Source: a virus
Lineage: Duplodnaviria; Heunggongvirae; Uroviricota; Caudoviricetes
Length of the DNA: 37,881 nt
Strand: one strand, 5' to 3'
Virus record (IMG/VR): IMGVR_UViG_2713896896_000009
Coordinates: 1-37,881 of that record
Shown here: positions 1 to 14,794 of the stretch, in pieces
Position numbering within the stretch: the first letter of the stretch is position 1
Layout of the letters: every line of letters begins with the position of its first letter
Notes under the pieces: generated by a model
Seen by the model: only the letters and a program-made list of their open reading frames with translations
The model's database searches: none
What the model was told of the DNA's origin: nothing
Made by a program: the position numbers and the translations under genes

Positions 1-1005
1 TTAATCCCCCGTGGACACAGCGTGGACACTTACGCCACCTTTCAGTGGATTAAGAGCCACCGCATCCTGCAGGTAATCCGGTGCAAAATGTGCATATGCC
101 ATTGTTTGCTGAATGGTTGCGTGACCAAGAATCTTCTGAAGCGCAATAATGTTTCCCCCATTCATCACAAAATGGCTGGCGAACGTATGCCGTAGCACAT
201 GTGCAGCCTGGCCTTTTGGCAAATCGGGTTTAACTCTTTTCAGCATCAGGCAGAATTCCCGGTACTTCACCTCAAACAAGTTGCCCGTTTCTTTGGTTTT
301 GATCGCCTCACAAACCGCCTGCGAAATTGGCACCGTCCTCTTCCGGCCATTTTTGGTTTCGAGAAACGTCACACGGTTATGAACTACCTGTTCTCCGCGA
401 AGCTTACTGGCTTCACCCCAACGCGCCCCGGTACTTAAACACAAAAGCGCAACACGCCAGTAGTCGCCCTCCAGTGTATCGAGCAATAGCGCTACTTCCT
501 TCTGGGACAGGAAAGCCATTTCTCGCGGGGATACATAAAGAATGGAGATCCCCCTTACCGGATGTTCTGCATCCCAAAGGCCTATTCTTTTCAGAACGGT
601 AAACATGCCGGATAGTCGGTTCATGTACCTGTTAGCAGATGACGGTTTCAATCCAGCAGCTATCTTTTGAGAACGCCACGCGATAATTTTCAGCTTATCA
701 AGATCCACAGCCTGCATATCAGCGCCAAGTTCATTGATTATGTTGCGCAGTTGTTTTCGGTCTTCTTCCGCCTTACGCCTGTGTTGACCGTGATACATCC
801 ACCACAACTCAAGCAAATCATTCAGTGTCCGGCGATCACGGTAGCCCTGTATGTATTCCCGCTTTTCAGCGTTCGCCATGATGTAGCGTTCAGTGGCCAC
901 CGCTACTGATTTTTTGTCAAATACCTTACGCACGCGCTTTCCCTTGCGTCCGTTCGGCCTGATGTCCAGCAAATAACGACCATCTTCGAGCTTCTTAATC
1001 GACAT
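1..1005 (-). CDS. int: Tyrosine integrase, P2 Int family
   Basis: The translation aligns along its length with P2 Int as I recall it (MSIKKLEDGRY... near the N-terminus, HxLRHTFA and AYAHFAPDYLQDA near the C-terminus). Start moved to the ATG at 1005, which has a GGAGGG Shine-Dalgarno 7 nt upstream; the track's 1020 start is a non-ATG codon. Confidence 0.93.
   Translation of the reverse strand: MSIKKLEDGRYLLDIRPNGRKGKRVRKVFDKKSVAVATERYIMANAEKREYIQGYRDRRTLNDLLELWWMYHGQHRRKAEEDRKQLRNIINELGADMQAVDLDKLKIIAWRSQKIAAGLKPSSANRYMNRLSGMFTVLKRIGLWDAEHPVRGISILYVSPREMAFLSQKEVALLLDTLEGDYWRVALLCLSTGARWGEASKLRGEQVVHNRVTFLETKNGRKRTVPISQAVCEAIKTKETGNLFEVKYREFCLMLKRVKPDLPKGQAAHVLRHTFASHFVMNGGNIIALQKILGHATIQQTMAYAHFAPDYLQDAVALNPLKGGVSVHAVSTGD
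11..29. repeat. Candidate attL core (gtggacacagcgtggacac) inside the int 3' end
   Basis: Matches 36703-36721 (gtggtcactgcgtggacac) at 17 of 19 positions, same orientation, at the two ends of the prophage gene set. Confidence 0.35.
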
Positions 1006-1101
1006 AGCGAAGCCCTCCAATGAACCGCTCTACAATCTCTCCAGCCTCTTCCCAGCAATAGTCAGACCAGACAAAGAACAGGTCTAACCAGTTTTCTGGC
1101 C

Positions 1102-4234: not shown

Positions 4235-7030
4235 GTGGCAACGGAGTACATCAGAAACTGGCAACAACCACGCCATGCAGTCGGTCGCGAGGGAACGGGG
4301 GAGCCTGTCCGCCCCTCCCTTCTTTCTTCCTGGCTGGATGCCTACCGGGCAGAGAACGAGCGCCGCCAGGAAATGGCTGATGCGGCGTTCTCCGCCGCGC
4401 CGCTGGGCAACCTGATTAATAAAAGCCTGGACGCACAGGAAAAACAGGACAAGGCCATCACACTGGCAAGAGAAGCCAGAAAACAGGCACGTGGCGCGGT
4501 GGATGAAGCAATTGCCGCACTGCGTCTGCTGCCGTCCTATCTGCGCGATCCGCTTATCCGCCATCTCTCTTTCCTGCGCAAAAAACAGGAATCTGACCGC
4601 CAGAAAGGCAAAAAGAACCAGCAGGCGGAACGCTATGCGCGCGGAACCCTGCGCAAAATATTCGACCGTCTGGCCCGCACCGACCGTCGCTGGCTGACTC
4701 CGGGTTATCGCTCCCTTGCCGGACGTGAACGTCTGGACGATTTGCTTTACCTGCCACAGCTCAACAAGCACCAGATACAGACGCTGGCCGTCATGACAGC
4801 GGCGATGTTCAGCAGCACCTTCGAAAAGCTCTGCGATGACTTTGGCGCGACCGACGGCGAGCTGACCATGGATATAACGCTGAAGGCGTATCAGATGCTG
4901 GCCCGCATGGCGTTACATCTGCACACAGTGCCGCCGCATTATGACGCACTGACAACAGACAAAGACCGGAAGAACGAACCGGACACGGAACTGCTGCCGG
5001 GTGCAATCCTTCGCCTGACCTGTGCGGACTGGTGGAAACGCAAACTGTGGCTTTTACGTTGCGAATGGAGAGAGGAACAACTCCGCGCTGCCTGTCTGGT
5101 TTCCAGAAAAACATCACCCTATCTGAGCCAGGACGCATTAAGTGAATTTCGCGCACAGCGCGAGAAAACACGCGATTTCCTGAAGAGCTTCATGCTGGAA
5201 AATGAAGACGGCTTCACGATTGATCTCGAGACGGTGTATTACGCAGGTGTCAGTAACCCGGTCCACCGTAAAGCAGAAATGATGGCCACCATGAAAGGGC
5301 TGGAACTTCTGGCCGAAGCCCGTGGCGACAGAGCGGTGTTTCTGACTGTCACCTGCCCGTCAAAATATCACGCAACAACGGAGAACGGTCATCCAAATCC
5401 CAAATGGAACGGGGCCACCATGCGCGACTCCAGCGATTACCTGGTTAACACGTTTTTTGCGGCGGTCCGCAAAAAACTGAACCGCGACGGTCTGCGCTGG
5501 TATGGCATCCGCACGGTGGAGCCTCACCATGACGGTACCGTGCACTGGCATATGATGGTCTTTGCACACCAGGACGAGATTGAAACCATCGTGTCCCACG
5601 TCTGCGATATTGCCATTCAGGAAGACCGCCACGAGCTGGGCGATGACATAACTCCGCGTTTTAAGGCGGAGTACGTAGACGGCTCAAAAGGCACGCCAAC
5701 CAGCTACATCGCCACCTACATCGGAAAGAACCTGGACAGCCGCGCCGTGGATGGCATCGACCCGAAAACGGGCAAGCCACGCGTTGACCACGAAACCGGA
5801 AAATCAATGGCCGAGAGCGTGGAACGCGCCATCGGCTGGGCGCGTCTTCACCGCGTCCGCCAGTTCCAGTTCTTTGGTATCCCCTCCCGTCAGGTATGGC
5901 GTGAACTGCGCCGCCTTGCCAGTCAGATGGCCCGCAACCCGGAAGGTCCACAACATCTGGAAAATGACGCAATGGATGCGGTACTCGCTGCCGCTGATGC
6001 CGGGTGTTTTGCCACCTACATTGAGAAACAGGGTGGCGTACTTGTTCCACGCAAAGACTACCTGATTCGCACCGCCTACGACCTCGCAGAAGAGCTGAAC
6101 GATTACGGCGAGCAAAGCGTACAGATTTACGGGATCTGGTCGCCACAAATCGGGGAATCTTCCCGCGTGTGCACGCACCCGGATAACTGGAAGCTGGTAA
6201 GACGTAAACCGGAAGTGGAAGACAGCGCCCGCGAAAATGGTTTTGACCTTCAGGGCGGCCCTGCCGCCCCTTGGACTCGTGGCAATAACTGTCCCCGTGT
6301 ACAGGAAACAGGCAACAGCGGGACAGAACAGTCGGAAGAGCAACCAACACCATGGCCGCAGATCCCTGACGGCGTTGATGTGGATGAATGGATGCGCTCA
6401 CTGAAACGGCACGAACGCCGGGCGCTGATGCGTTCGCTGCGTGACAAACAGGCAAAAAACAACAGTGATGAAATGCAGAACTGGACACAGAGCCGCAAAC
6501 AGCCGCGGCCTTTGCCTGATAACCACGAGTTACTCGCTAAAGAATGGCGGGAGTCTGCCGAATCTCTCGGCCTGCATATCGGTGAACAACAGATGCTGCA
6601 CCTGTTACGGGGCGGCAGTCTGTACGTTGACGGCAGCATCATTGCGCCGCAGGGATATGAAATTGTACGTAAACCGGATACCCGACCGGACAGCCGAATC
6701 ACGCAACTCTGGCAGCGCCTGAGTCGTAATCACAGCGTAAACAGCACGGAAATCCGCCATAACCCGGTTTCCAGCTATCTGAAACAGCTCGGGGCATCAG
6801 ACCCAGAAGCCGCCGCACGCCTGGCATCCACAATTCAGCGGGACCAGAACACCATGAAAACACCCGTTACCGTGCTTTCTGACATGCTGCGCACCATCCG
6901 TGACGCAGAGCACGCACAGAGAATCAGTGAAACCACTGAACGCGCCCGCCGCAAAGCAGACCTGCTGCGGTGGCCTGACCAGCGGAAACAAAAAACAGAC
7001 AGAAACGGGATTCACAAATCCCGTAAATGA
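4235..7030 (+). CDS. A: Replication initiation endonuclease, P2 gpA family (rolling-circle HUH initiator)
   Basis: Large ORF at the P2 gene-A position with a GTG start after GGCGGAG; contains an HxH-type motif (GTVHWHMMVF) and catalytic-tyrosine-like region (SYIATYIGKN). 931 aa, longer than P2 A as I recall it. Confidence 0.88.
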   Translation: MATEYIRNWQQPRHAVGREGTGEPVRPSLLSSWLDAYRAENERRQEMADAAFSAAPLGNLINKSLDAQEKQDKAITLAREARKQARGAVDEAIAALRLLPSYLRDPLIRHLSFLRKKQESDRQKGKKNQQAERYARGTLRKIFDRLARTDRRWLTPGYRSLAGRERLDDLLYLPQLNKHQIQTLAVMTAAMFSSTFEKLCDDFGATDGELTMDITLKAYQMLARMALHLHTVPPHYDALTTDKDRKNEPDTELLPGAILRLTCADWWKRKLWLLRCEWREEQLRAACLVSRKTSPYLSQDALSEFRAQREKTRDFLKSFMLENEDGFTIDLETVYYAGVSNPVHRKAEMMATMKGLELLAEARGDRAVFLTVTCPSKYHATTENGHPNPKWNGATMRDSSDYLVNTFFAAVRKKLNRDGLRWYGIRTVEPHHDGTVHWHMMVFAHQDEIETIVSHVCDIAIQEDRHELGDDITPRFKAEYVDGSKGTPTSYIATYIGKNLDSRAVDGIDPKTGKPRVDHETGKSMAESVERAIGWARLHRVRQFQFFGIPSRQVWRELRRLASQMARNPEGPQHLENDAMDAVLAAADAGCFATYIEKQGGVLVPRKDYLIRTAYDLAEELNDYGEQSVQIYGIWSPQIGESSRVCTHPDNWKLVRRKPEVEDSARENGFDLQGGPAAPWTRGNNCPRVQETGNSGTEQSEEQPTPWPQIPDGVDVDEWMRSLKRHERRALMRSLRDKQAKNNSDEMQNWTQSRKQPRPLPDNHELLAKEWRESAESLGLHIGEQQMLHLLRGGSLYVDGSIIAPQGYEIVRKPDTRPDSRITQLWQRLSRNHSVNSTEIRHNPVSSYLKQLGASDPEAAARLASTIQRDQNTMKTPVTVLSDMLRTIRDAEHAQRISETTERARRKADLLRWPDQRKQKTDRNGIHKSRK

Positions 7031-7103
7031 GCAAAAAACGCGCCGCGATATATGAAACGCGCACAAAACAGGCAAAAGCGGGATTTCAGAATCCCGTAAA
7101 CGA
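7007..7103. repeat. Two 24-bp direct repeats, each an internal palindrome (candidate parC centromere / operator)
   Basis: gggattcacaaatcccgtaaatga at 7007-7030 and gggatttcagaatcccgtaaacga at 7080-7103; each holds an inverted repeat (acgggatt ... aatcccgt). They bracket the A stop codon and the parM upstream region. Confidence 0.4.
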
Positions 7104-7131
7104 TTAATTAATCAACATAAGGAAAATCGAC

Positions 7132-8091
7132 ATGAAAATTTGCATCGACGACGGCTCCACCAACATCAAGCTGGCATGGACTGAGAACGGCGAACGCCGC
7201 AACGCCATCAGCCCGAACAGCTTCAAGTCGGAATGGTCTGCGCCGTTCGGTGGCACGCAGCCCGCGAACTACATGCTTGATGGCGTGCGCTATGGTTTTG
7301 ATCCGGTCAGCGATCGCTTTGTCCAGACGACCGACACGCAATACCAGTACAGCGATGTGAATGTCATTGCCATTCATCACGCGCTGGTCAAATCAGGTAT
7401 CACACCACAGGAAGTGGACGTGGTTGTCACCCTGCCACTGAGCGAGTATTTCGATACAAACGCACAGCCGGACATGGCCAACATCAACCGCAAAAAAGCG
7501 AATGTCCTGCGCCCTGTGGAGTACCAGAACGGTGAAGCATTCACTATCCGCAACGTGCGGGTTATGCCTGAATCCATTCCGGCTGGCTTTAAAGCACTGG
7601 CTGACATGAGCCCGTTTGAATCCCTGCTGATTGTGGATTTGGGCGGAACCACGCTGGATGTGGCAAAGGTTCAGGGGCAACTGGCAGGTATCAGCCAGGT
7701 GTTTTGCGATCCACACGTAGGCGTTTCTCTGATGGCCGATGCCGTACTGTCGGTGATGGCCACTAACGGTATGCGTACCAGTCACCACATCGCCAATACC
7801 ATTATTGAGCACCGTCACGATGAAGCCTGGCTACGCCAGCACATTCACAATGACGCGCATTACAACAGCCTGATGGCGGTTATTCGTGAAAAGGAGGAGA
7901 CACTAAAACAACGCGTGATCCGCGCACTCGCGGGCTTTTCGGGTTACGGGCGGGTGCTGGTTGTCGGTGGAGGAGCGGAGATTGTGGCACCCGCAGTCCG
8001 TGAAATCTATGGAGTCAATGCGAATTTCATCACAGACGGGGTGCCACAGTTTGCTCTGGTTAACGGTCTGTACGCTATGGATAAGGAGTAA
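7132..8091 (+). CDS. parM: ParM/StbA-family actin-like segregation ATPase
   Basis: N-terminus MKICIDDGSTNIKLAW...ISPNSF...YSDVNVIAIHHAL parallels plasmid R1 ParM as I recall it; 319 aa. Confidence 0.85.
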   Translation: MKICIDDGSTNIKLAWTENGERRNAISPNSFKSEWSAPFGGTQPANYMLDGVRYGFDPVSDRFVQTTDTQYQYSDVNVIAIHHALVKSGITPQEVDVVVTLPLSEYFDTNAQPDMANINRKKANVLRPVEYQNGEAFTIRNVRVMPESIPAGFKALADMSPFESLLIVDLGGTTLDVAKVQGQLAGISQVFCDPHVGVSLMADAVLSVMATNGMRTSHHIANTIIEHRHDEAWLRQHIHNDAHYNSLMAVIREKEETLKQRVIRALAGFSGYGRVLVVGGGAEIVAPAVREIYGVNANFITDGVPQFALVNGLYAMDKE

Positions 8092-8097
8092 CCCTCC

Positions 8098-8409
8098 ATG
8101 GCGACATTAACCAGAAGAATAAGTTTCTATCTGAAGCCAGCCGCCGTCAAGAACGAAGGCAAAGCATGCGCCTGGCTGGACAGCCTTACACCAGAAGCCC
8201 GCAAAAGCGGCCAACGCGTGGCTTTTCTGGCCGGGCTGGCACTTCTGAAAATGAATCCGGCAGAGGCTTACCGACTGGCTGCATGGGCTGATGATGAGGC
8301 GTTATCAGTGACACAAACCAGGGCAGAACGCCACATGTTACAGCCAGCGCCCACCGCACAGATAACCAGTCAGATAGCTGGAAATATCCGGGCGTTATTT
8401 CCCGAATAA
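8098..8409 (+). CDS. parR: ParR-like centromere-binding adaptor
   Basis: 103 aa directly after parM; FYLKPA...WLDSLTPEAR...AFLAGLAL parallels the R1 ParR N-terminus (F.LNPD...LDSIP..ER...AALTAGLAL). Confidence 0.7.
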   Translation: MATLTRRISFYLKPAAVKNEGKACAWLDSLTPEARKSGQRVAFLAGLALLKMNPAEAYRLAAWADDEALSVTQTRAERHMLQPAPTAQITSQIAGNIRALFPE

Positions 8410-8472
8410 CACAACATCAGGGCGCATCCGCCCTGATGACTTTAATCCGGGAACATAAACAAGGGGGACACA

Positions 8473-8814
8473 ATGCAACACATTGACAGAGAAAAAGCGC
8501 AGCGACTGATTGAGCGGATGGAAGCGCTGGCGAAAGAAGAAAATGTCAACATCCAAAAAATAGCAGAATGTGGCCAGATAGTTCTTCGTCGTGAAAAAGA
8601 CATCAAGCAACTGATGTCTGGCGAAACCAGCAAAACACGGATTCCAGGCGAGAAAACGATTTATTGTAGCTTCTGCAATAAATCCCAGTACGAAGTCACA
8701 AAGGTGATTGCCGGACCGTCTGTTTACATCTGCAATGAGTGCGTGGATTTGTGCAATGAAATTATCAGGAGAGAAGCGACTGACCATGAAGAAGCGCGGA
8801 GATGCAACGATTAA
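8473..8814 (+). CDS. Stand-alone ClpX-type C4 zinc-finger domain protein
   Basis: The C-terminal half ([38 protein letters not shown]) closely matches the ClpX N-terminal zinc-binding domain; the AAA+ module is absent. The N-terminal ~60 aa is unrelated. Confidence 0.75.
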
Positions 8815-8882
8815 GTCGGGTAATGATATTGAGCAGGCGACTCACTGGATGCCGATGCCAGAAGCGTTTCAGGAGGTTAACC

Positions 8883-9158
8883 GTGGCTAACCTGCAACTT
8901 GCCGTCAAAGGTGAATACTTCGATGCCATGATTCGCGGAGAGAAAACAGAAGAGTATCGCCTGGTTAATTCATACTGGTCTCGCCGTATATTGGATAAGA
9001 GCTATGATCGATTGATTATTACTAAGGGGTATCCGAAACGCGACGATTTAAGTCGCAGAATTGATGTCCCATATGGGGGATATGAGATCAAGGTGATAAC
9101 ACATCCACATTTTGGACCAGAGCCAGTAAAAGTATTTGCTATTAAGTTGACTCAATGA
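8883..9158 (+). CDS. ASCH/PUA-like domain protein
   Basis: GTG start after CAGGAGG chosen inside track ORF 8802-9158; GEYFDAMIRGEKTEEYR resembles the ASCH beta-barrel signature. Domain call is tentative. Confidence 0.5.
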   Translation: MANLQLAVKGEYFDAMIRGEKTEEYRLVNSYWSRRILDKSYDRLIITKGYPKRDDLSRRIDVPYGGYEIKVITHPHFGPEPVKVFAIKLTQ

Positions 9159-9418
9159 CCGATACCACTAAGAAAAAGACGTTAAATAACATACATGAAA
9201 AGTATGATTATTTTACGGATACCGCTTGCTTGCTGACATCTGAAGAACAAAAGATAGCCCAACTTTTAGGCGATGCATGGAACCTGTATTTAACATTGCC
9301 AGTTGAGCATCCAATGGGTAGAGATGAATTTTGCCGGGCAATTCATCATTGCCAAAATATGGTGTTGGCACGCCCTGCCATCAGGGCGCTGGCCAGTAAG
9401 GGGCAAGGCTATAAATAG
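9155..9418 (+). CDS. Hypothetical protein
   Basis: 87-aa ORF overlapping the upstream stop (ATGA); no family recognised. Confidence 0.45.
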   Translation: MTDTTKKKTLNNIHEKYDYFTDTACLLTSEEQKIAQLLGDAWNLYLTLPVEHPMGRDEFCRAIHHCQNMVLARPAIRALASKGQGYK

Positions 9419-9425
9419 ATGAGCA

Positions 9426-9452
9426 AAACGCCCTCCTCCAGGGCGTTTATTT
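9426..9452 (+). terminator. Rho-independent terminator closing the accessory operon
   Basis: Stem aaacgccct / agggcgttt with loop cctcc, followed by a T-rich tract. Confidence 0.6.
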
Positions 9453-9906
9453 CAATGCACAATAGTGCACAAATTTGCACAATTTTTTTGAACGACTTTT
9501 TACCCTTCCGGCCCGCATGGCGGCTGGATCCGTCAAGGATCCGTGCGTGCACAAAAAAACGCGTTTTTTCTGCGCGCAGGTGACGGGGGAACAGCCCGCG
9601 TTTCAGGGGGTAAATAGCATTCCCTGAGCGATGTCGCAGCGACACAATAGAATGGCTGTATTTCTCACGCTGAGCGTGAAAAAGACGTAAGGGTTTTTGA
9701 TTTGATGGGTTGAAAGGTAAGGCCGTCAAAATCGCACTGAGGCGGCGAGAACATACAGTCAACGCGGTGGGATTGCGTAAGAGTCTGACCGTCGATGGTG
9801 GCGATAAACTGGAAGGCGTCGTGAAATTATCTGACTGATACAGGAGCTGGAGAGTCGGGGCATAAATTTTTTATGCCCCGGCGAAGCAGCAGACAAGCGA
9901 AGCGCG

Positions 9907-10953
9907 TCAGGCTGTGGGCTGGGTGTCTAACAGTGCGTAAGGGTTAAAGCGGATCACCTCTTCGCCCAGCCAGTCATTGATGTGCTTCATGGCCTCCATT
10001 ACGGGCATCAGCTCGTTAATTGCGTAAACCCGCGCGGCCTTCTCCACATCACCAAACGCACTTTTTTCACCCGGCATCGCCCCCATCAGTTGCGGCGGAA
10101 CGCGGTGCGCAGCCAGCACATCATCACGGGATGCCGCCTTAACATTCATGAACTCATCCTTTGCGGTGATCTGCTGGAACGGCAAAATTTGCACCCCCTC
10201 TTTGCCCCCGTTGGGCGCATGAATGAGCACGTTTTTAAACGCACCACCACCACGTGCACCCTGTAGCGTTTCTTTCAGGGAGTCCATGCTTTCGCGGTTT
10301 ACCTGCGCTGCACCGATGTAGATGATGCACCCGGCGTGGGATCCGTTGTCGTAATACAGTTTTCTGAACATGTCCGCCGAATGAGACAGGCTGGCCGAGA
10401 GTAATGCGCCGAGATATTCCGGCATGCCGTAGATTTCCTGGTTAATGTCAGGATTCATCAGGTGGCACACTTTACCAGGGCGAAACTGAAACGCGTCCTT
10501 ACCATCCTGCACATACCACCATGATTCAAGATCGCTTCCGCGTCGCATGTATTTCGCCAGGGCGTGCCGTAATTTAAGCGGTTCGCCGAGCATATTGCTT
10601 CGAAGCTCAAGGAATGCGTTACCGAACACAAACCAGTCCAGCGCCAGCGCCGAGAAATCCTGCCGGGAAAGCAACGGGTGCGGGATGTAGCAACCGAGTA
10701 ATACATTGCGCTTAAAGTAAAGCGCAGACTGATGCCAGGACGTTTGCCGGGCAGCTCTTGCCAGACCGTACCAGTCCACCGGGGTTTCATACCACCGCCC
10801 GTTATCAGCACAGTACATATTGTCCAGCAGGTCATGCCCGGTCAGGCGATAAGGACCATCAAATGTGAATGCACTGAGCGACGATTCTTTCCTGAGCGCA
10901 TCAGCGAGATCAATGCGTGAACTCATGCGCACTTTTTTATTTTTTCTGCTCAT
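9907..10953 (-). CDS. Q: Portal protein, P2 gpQ family
   Basis: 348 aa at the P2 Q position, transcribed away from the capsid operon; start overlaps the terminase stop (ATGA). Confidence 0.88.
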   Translation of the reverse strand: MSRKNKKVRMSSRIDLADALRKESSLSAFTFDGPYRLTGHDLLDNMYCADNGRWYETPVDWYGLARAARQTSWHQSALYFKRNVLLGCYIPHPLLSRQDFSALALDWFVFGNAFLELRSNMLGEPLKLRHALAKYMRRGSDLESWWYVQDGKDAFQFRPGKVCHLMNPDINQEIYGMPEYLGALLSASLSHSADMFRKLYYDNGSHAGCIIYIGAAQVNRESMDSLKETLQGARGGGAFKNVLIHAPNGGKEGVQILPFQQITAKDEFMNVKAASRDDVLAAHRVPPQLMGAMPGEKSAFGDVEKAARVYAINELMPVMEAMKHINDWLGEEVIRFNPYALLDTQPTA

Positions 10954-14781: not shown

Positions 14782-14794
14782 NNNNNNNNNNNNN
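14782..14794. other. Assembly gap (13 N)
   Basis: Run of N characters in the supplied sequence. Confidence 0.95.

Follow-up and report, generated by a model that had tools for sequence, protein, structure and literature searches.

What use is an actin-like DNA-segregation machine to an integrating phage? The question is raised by the 37,881-nt stretch IMGVR_UViG_2713896896_000009 (here the window, to whose positions all coordinates refer), a P88-like prophage (genus Xuanwuvirus, Peduoviridae, P2-like) in which replication gene A is followed by a pair of palindrome-containing direct repeats and then by parM and parR. Judged by comparison with related elements, the interval of about 6990-7103 probably serves a type II parMRC cassette both as its split parC centromere and as the operator for ParR, with a layout like that of the pB171 par1 locus. 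The repeats, the genes downstream of them and the hairpin that follows these genes are:

6989-7030, plus strand: repeat copy 1, with an A-rich tract (6989-7006), the palindrome CGGGATT-CACA-AATCCCG (7006-7023) and the tail TAAATGA
7031-7061, plus strand: central spacer, in which the conserved blocks AAATGAGCAAAAAAC and GATATATGA flank a variable stretch
7062-7103, plus strand: repeat copy 2, with an A-rich tract (7062-7079), the palindrome CGGGATT-TCAG-AATCCCG (7079-7096) and the tail TAAACGA
7104-7131, plus strand: parM leader TTAATTAATCAACATAAGGAAAA, almost invariant, with the Shine-Dalgarno sequence AAGGA of parM
7132-8091, plus strand: parM, actin-like segregation ATPase of 319 aa (Pfam StbA_N, 7e-82; ParM C-terminal domain, 1e-66)
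8098-8409, plus strand: parR, predicted centromere-binding adaptor of 103 aa (Pfam PF10784, E 2e-24)
8415-8438, no strand assigned: hairpin with a 10-bp stem, just 3' of the parR stop

The two 24-nt strings singled out in the initial annotation occur exactly at 7007-7030 and 7080-7103 and do form a pair of direct repeats, but the repeated unit is longer, at 42 nt (6989-7030 and 7062-7103; 79% identical, with a start-to-start distance of 73 bp). Each unit opens with an A-rich tract (CAAAAAACAGACAGAAAC in copy 1, CACAAAACAGGCAAAAGC in copy 2), continues with the palindrome CGGGATT-N4-AATCCCG and closes with the tail TAAA(T/C)GA. The core GGGATT-N4-AATCCC lies inside each 42-nt copy, and the 7-bp arms CGGGATT/AATCCCG are the perfectly symmetric part of both palindromes. 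The 8-bp inverted repeat annotated earlier in each copy is reached only if one more pair is counted, A-T in copy 1 and G-T in copy 2, and this extension starts 2 nt before the annotated start of each string. Copy 1 ends on the gene A stop codon TGA (7028-7030), and thus does lie in the last codons of that gene as first described, and block AAATGAGCAAAAAAC of the central spacer begins within its tail, at 7025. From the start of the GGGATT arm to the parM ATG the distance is 125 nt for copy 1 and 52 nt for copy 2, and the whole 42-nt direct-repeat pair is contained within 143 nt upstream of parM; its assignment to a position upstream of parM was confirmed by the identification of both parM and parR downstream. 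When up to three mismatches were allowed, GGGATTNNNRAATCCCGTAAA gave three overlapping matches in the 37.9-kb window, all at the locus, against 0.03 expected, and a chance origin of the repeat pattern is therefore excluded. The heptamer AATCCCG occurs 10 times in the window, four of them inside the 91-bp repeat span.

Both genes downstream belong to known partition families. A PDB search with the window parM product retrieved the R1 ParM structure 1mwk (E 3.7e-92), with 47% identity between the two proteins over 318 aa. Among the 121 distinct Escherichia coli-lineage sequences that make up the diversity set used throughout, nucleotide diversity (pi) at parM codon positions 1, 2 and 3 was 0.013, 0.008 and 0.077, respectively, which points to clear purifying selection on the gene. 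The family of the window ParR, PF10784, is also that of R1 ParR and pB171 ParR; a profile of its close relatives reaches R1 ParR (1.7e-6), and a wider family profile matches pB171 ParR (PDB 2JD3, 1.9e-17), a solved member of the family with a ribbon-helix-helix fold and the closest solved relative. A single-sequence PDB search with the window ParR gave no match, and the AlphaFold2 model of the monomer, built with 17 sequences, has a pLDDT (predicted local distance difference test) score of 52. The N-terminal strand RRISFYLKP and the C-terminal motif N-x-x-x-L-F-P are kept in all ParR variants. A ParM ATPase, a gene directly downstream of it for the small adaptor ParR, whose C-terminal tail binds ParM in such systems, and a repeated, inherited site upstream, by which type II partition loci are recognised, are thus all found at the window locus.

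ParR occurs as two allelic types that are about 50% identical (window 8098-8409; loci L006, L090 and L091) and whose differences fall in the C-terminal half and in the first helix, which reads TPEARKSGQRV in one and PASERSRAQRA in the other. Both types have the same N-terminal strand and the same upstream palindromes and are thus uninformative on co-variation between protein and site. Homology between different genomic contexts ends just after parR, where relatives carry unrelated hairpins, and the hairpin at 8415-8438 is likely to mark both the point where parMR transcription ends and the right-hand boundary of the cassette.

Comparison of the interval in related prophages, an approach suggested in the initial annotation, associated the repeats with parMR rather than with gene A. 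One P2-like backbone unlike that of the window, in E. coli NZ_CP055048.1, has a 768-aa gene A product plus an extra open reading frame (ORF); homology to the window begins there at 6990, which aligns there as the first base of the copy 1 A-rich tract, and spans both repeats, parM and parR. This prophage (L263 3440-4920) also holds a 23-codon remnant of a P88-type gene A tail, annotated as a pseudogene. Two prophages with a P88-type gene A and no parMR diverge from the window within 6941-6957, and the GGGATT palindromes were not found in them; no such palindrome was found in the sequence that follows the Fels-2 gene A either, and P2, to judge from its gene layout, lacks the repeats as well. When 2.9 million viral contigs were scanned for the paired pattern GGGATT-N4-AATCCC-N50-64-GGGATT-N4-AATCCC, it was recovered from 92, and in all 92 it lies directly upstream of the parM start. 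These comparisons indicate that the repeats are a component of the par cassette and not of gene A, and that they are transferred with parMR as one unit.

They also bear on the replication-related role that had been offered as an alternative. The repeats accompany parMR where the backbone has another gene A, and a P88-type gene A without parMR does not have them; the alternative is accordingly rejected. As for the frequency of the cassette, 1308 of the 5426 complete E. coli genomes carry it, among them O157:H7, O104:H4 and ST131 strains, with 1454 of 1456 copies located on chromosomes and 2 on plasmids. One whole P88-like genome (NZ_CP148288.1, L261) has been deposited as a circular 34.5-kb plasmid.

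The repeats are conserved in relatives that carry parMR, and this conservation is concentrated in the palindrome arms. Between the window and a Hafnia relative, in which ParM is 93% and ParR 73-75% identical, the arms are identical at 24 of 24 positions, the N4 spacers at 4 of 8 and the rest of the upstream region at 85 of 111, with 68% identity at parM third codon positions. Within the diversity set, pi was 0.04 in the copy 1 arms and 0.03 in the copy 2 arms, versus 0.17 in the N4 spacers and 0.093 at parM four-fold sites, so that arm diversity is about one third of the four-fold-site level and the N4 spacers vary freely. Values for the central spacer (7031-7061), A-rich tract 1 and the leader (7104-7131) were 0.076, 0.03 and 0.036, respectively, with pi being 0 at most positions of the leader. 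The 73-bp spacing is preserved in 109 of the 112 sequences that keep both sites. This pattern indicates that the palindrome arms are under purifying selection.

The constraint on the arms does not derive from gene A coding, because three different gene A stop positions occur. In the window the stop TGA at 7028-7030 arises from a window-specific 2-bp deletion near 6968; in nearly all relatives gene A continues to a TGA at 7053-7055, and in the Hafnia relative it stops within the copy 1 loop. Copy 1 overlaps gene A because the latter reads into the cassette until a stop is met, and the C-terminal tail of the gene A product, encoded by cassette DNA, seems to be dispensable. The deletion itself (CTGCTGC--GGTGG, 6966-6970) shifts the gene A frame so that it stops at 7030 instead of 7055, and could be either a real variant or a sequencing error.

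Palindromes could be conserved as protein-binding sites or as hairpins, and the way in which the arms vary fits the former better. Not one compensatory change was found in the 16 possible stem pairs in the diversity set; stem variation is all one-sided and mostly pair-breaking. The substitution T>C at 7011, present in 28 of the 121 sequences, creates an internal C-A mismatch that is tolerated, and C>T at 7095 (the 7080/7095 pair), present in 18 of 121, retains a G-U pair on the plus strand only. A more distant lineage, found in Serratia-type P2-like prophages (ParM 53-59% and ParR 37-40% identical), keeps a conserved upstream region of about 125 nt. In a MAFFT alignment, copy 2 (AAAGCGGGATTTCAGAATCCC) corresponds in this lineage to AAACGGCATTTCATGACCC, which is conserved and non-palindromic. 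The lineage has the motif TTTC(A/G)TnnCC three times, once inverted and twice direct, and a long imperfect inverted repeat at the same place, which changes without compensation. Taken together, sequence-specific recognition appears to explain the pattern better than a structural hairpin does. In a Serratia quinivorans prophage (L189 1081-1207), the stretch that separates gene A from an inserted methylase-like ORF contains two exact copies of CACAGACAAAAACA, and a small hairpin that differs between them comes after each; the motif ACAGACA in these copies also occurs in the A-rich tract of the E. coli repeats.

Two explanations based on hairpins were weighed against these data, each of them improbable. 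In the first, the repeats would be intrinsic terminators on the minus strand, where a hairpin and a T-rich run would stop antisense or convergent transcription from the cargo before it enters gene A. A scan did recover minus-strand terminator-like sites, with stems of 7-8 pairs followed by a broken T-run (TTCTGTCTGT and CTTTTGCCTG); the minus-strand hairpins fold at about -10 kcal/mol, the A-rich tract that precedes each palindrome on the plus strand is kept in the lineages of E. coli, Hafnia and Serratia alike, and in P2 the cargo beside gene A (tin, old) is transcribed towards A. However, the stem z-scores are modest (-2.7 and -1.0) and no minus-strand gene lies upstream of the sites: every neighbouring ORF with Pfam or PHROG support (parM, parR and a trio at 8473-9418) reads in the plus direction, and those at 8395-8787 and 9409-9762 on the minus strand have no family matches. 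In addition, none of the 16 pairs is compensated, 23% of the distinct sequences carry the internal C-A mismatch and the Serratia homologue of copy 2 lacks a hairpin. Two near-identical stems at a fixed 73-bp spacing are also unlike ordinary terminators, which vary in their stems as the hairpin after parR does, and an A-rich coding strand is found in R1 parC as well. A plus-strand terminator of gene A, to which the initial annotation had alluded, is discarded since no T-run follows either hairpin on its 3' side.

In the second explanation, which is held to be just as doubtful, the hairpins would form in plus-strand RNA transcribed from gene A through parMR and would decouple the expression of parMR from that of gene A by affecting RNA processing or stability, in the form of an A-rich cleavage site with a protective 5' hairpin or of a long-range structure between copy 1 and copy 2. 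Co-transcription with gene A is suggested by the failure to detect a promoter. Folding energies on the plus strand are -11 and -11.7 kcal/mol for the two hairpins (z -5.0 and -2.4) and -34 kcal/mol (z -5.0) for a 150-nt segment in which copy 1 is paired to copy 2; the only frequent substitution at 7080/7095 (C>T, 18/121) is the one that keeps a plus-strand G-U pair, and the Serratia lineage has a different long inverted repeat at the same place. Nevertheless, covariation is absent, T>C at 7011 disrupts an internal pair in 28 of 121 sequences, the Serratia inverted repeat is imperfect and changes uncompensated, and 6700-7400 gave no Rfam match at E up to 1. The long-range fold is an automatic consequence of both copies being palindromes. 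Less probable still is that the 42-nt duplication is a non-functional remnant or recombination scar marking the cassette junction (a duplicated joint or recombinase target), as the coincidence of the cassette left edge with the copy 1 start and the absorption of copy 1 into the gene A reading frame might suggest, given that the arms are conserved well beyond the neutral rate, the spacing is fixed despite 32% divergence at parM third positions, parM and parR have both copies on one side and no related repeat is found at the right edge.

The reading as a parC centromere and ParR operator, put forward in the initial annotation, is the one best supported by comparison, through cassette linkage, exclusivity, arm constraint and the pB171 par1-like layout (PMC9426499). 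It is favoured because the repeats are found only upstream of parM, move with parMR and have constrained arms without the covariation of a hairpin. The closest layout among known centromeres is that of the pB171-type par1 locus, in which CTCA(A/G)ATTGAGTATT occurs twice, 43 bp apart, immediately before parM, with CTCAA-N-TTGAG as the palindromic core of either copy. As in the window, these are two palindrome-containing direct repeats, and the CTCA(A/G) copies presumably correspond to the published 10-bp ParR sites of pB171. The repeat sequences are unrelated, however, and the distance is 43 bp versus 73 bp in the window. Moreover, pB171 parC1 also serves a divergent parAB on a plasmid, whereas the window site adjoins gene A of an integrating phage.

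The parMRC loci of R1 and R100 resemble the window locus in their ParM (47% identical), in a ParR of the same Pfam family and in a parC located upstream of parM as two blocks around a central region (PMC5016525). In R1 parC this split surrounds the promoter, which loops out of the ParR ring (PMC5016525). The coding strand of R1 is likewise A-rich, with a similar ribosome-binding context (CATAAGGA), and R1 has CATAAGGAG where the window has the parM leader. On the other hand, R1 carries direct iterons of 11 bp in a 2 x 5 arrangement together with an obvious promoter, and the window has two palindromes and no clear promoter; the 11-bp iteron arrays flanking a promoter that characterise an R1-type parC are thus lacking from the window, the split two-block layout being what is common. 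Plasmid relatives (R1-type, IncL/M and others) also have direct iterons that flank an obvious promoter. A BLAST search of R1 parC against the window gave neither a significant nor a best match at the locus, and with an R1 iteron matrix the half-sites rank only 94th and 162nd in the window. A resemblance between AATCCCGTAAA and AAACCCAAAAA was dropped, being unsupported by BLAST and by the matrix ranks.

We infer ParR binding, its stoichiometry, the looping, the promoter position and the partition role, in a model where ParR (8098-8409) dimers would bind four AATCCCG half-sites. Each palindrome would represent two half-sites 10 bp apart, and the palindromes are separated by 73 bp, or about seven helical turns; with half-site centres at 0, 10, 73 and 83 bp, all four would lie on one face of the helix. 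Four ParR dimers, arranged as two dimers of dimers, could then occupy the half-sites, the conserved A-rich flanks may extend or bend the ParR-DNA complex, and the 57 bp that separate the two GGGATT-N4-AATCCC cores would form a loop. The bound complex would serve as an attachment point or cap for growing ParM filaments and also as an operator, with ParR limiting the transcription that enters parMR; R1 parC and pB171 par1 operate in this manner. A weak promoter, with the elements ATGAGC/TGAGCA and TATATG (TATAAG in Hafnia) at a distance of 15-16 nt, may lie in the central spacer and is suspected because two conserved blocks around a variable stretch are the pattern expected of a promoter.

Several observations weigh against the parC assignment. 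No sigma-70 promoter on the plus strand came up in a consensus scan, either between the repeats or close to them, and hand inspection yielded weak candidates only, whereas the par loci of plasmid relatives have obvious promoters; parMR may instead be read through from gene A. Two repeats, with four half-sites, are few compared with the ten iterons of R1, no significant match was obtained here with R1 parC or the R1 iteron matrix, and both hairpins resemble intrinsic terminators on the minus strand. Characterised ParR proteins have been reported to bind direct repeats, not palindromes (PMC9426499). The DNA-contacting strand of the Serratia-lineage ParR, NRKISFYLKP, is nearly identical to TRRISFYLKP, yet the upstream repeats differ, and co-variation between ParR and its site is not demonstrated by these sequences. 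Wider scans for the cassette gave 4 loci in genome contigs and 60 in metagenome contigs, the latter all from known lineages, and scans of viral contigs added only the Serratia-type lineage, a fragmented locus with a broken parM (L286) and an E. coli-type locus truncated by the contig end (L314). Finally, with 1454 of 1456 E. coli copies being chromosomal, a partition role is not obvious.

The genes that frame the cassette in the window are:

1-1020, minus strand: ORF where a P2-type integrase would sit, assigned by position only
4235-7030, plus strand: replication gene A (Pfam Phage_GPA, 2.6e-127)
9907-10953, minus strand: portal (Pfam Phage_portal, 4.5e-18)

Phages P88, P88_4B11, Shae_phiSM, 520873 and others are 92-94% identical to the window in this region. 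In the P2 gene layout, gene A is followed by orf91 and the convergent tin/old genes, with no parMR, and the P2 origin is located inside gene A. P88-type gene A proteins (931-940 aa) continue for about 125 residues past the end of the Fels-2 gene A protein (809 aa), an extension corresponding to about 6640-7030, and DNA similarity to other P2-like gene A copies ends near 6300. The cargo after parR (8473-9418) encodes a ClpX-type zinc-finger protein (Pfam 9e-18) and ORFs of PHROG 625 and 13916; this segment varies among relatives and corresponds to the position of the P2 'old/tin' hot spot. A run of 13 N is present in the capsid-gene region, at 14782-14794.

A literature search retrieved no paper describing the P88-type par locus. 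Repeats upstream of parM that most likely act as parC are what a specialist would expect, and not a new kind of element; the site itself is of modest interest, and the biology of the cassette of more. If ParR binds the repeats, 6990-8410 (1.4 kb) would make up an entire parMRC cassette of unusual compactness, its four half-sites fitting into 90 bp, which moves between P2-like phage backbones and would offer a small, defined ParR-DNA pair for structural work.

Candidate roles for such a cassette are to stabilise unintegrated circles, to position replicating genomes or to act on the chromosome. Chromosome-borne ParCMR cassettes with a functional parC are known in Firmicutes (PMC12270681). The srpMRC system of the SXT/R391 integrative and conjugative elements is, as here, a type II partition locus in a usually integrated element; its srpC consists of four direct and inverted 13-bp repeats, and the system stabilises the excised circular form (PMC4489591). 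It differs in that SrpR has no detectable homology to ParR and that the element is conjugative, not a phage. In the CGP3 prophage of Corynebacterium glutamicum, AlpAC/alpS mediates viral DNA transport and efficient replication (PMC4446434, PMC5539076). Like the window it encodes an actin-like protein and a DNA-binding adaptor on a prophage, and by this description it may be a functional analogue, although the actin-like family is distant and the adaptor and sites are unrelated. By analogy with SXT/R391 (PMC4489591) and CGP3 AlpAC (PMC4446434), the P88-type cassette may stabilise or position the excised or replicating circle.

A bolder proposal, considered rather unlikely, is that a minimal centromere of two palindromes makes a fully integrating P2-like phage, present in about one quarter of complete E. 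coli genomes, partition-competent. If this were true, ParMRC would segregate or position the excised or not-yet-integrated circle, in a carrier or pseudolysogenic state or during replication, and the window ParR would be the first shown to use inverted half-sites. The integrated prophage, in turn, would equip the E. coli chromosome with an active centromere driven by ParM.

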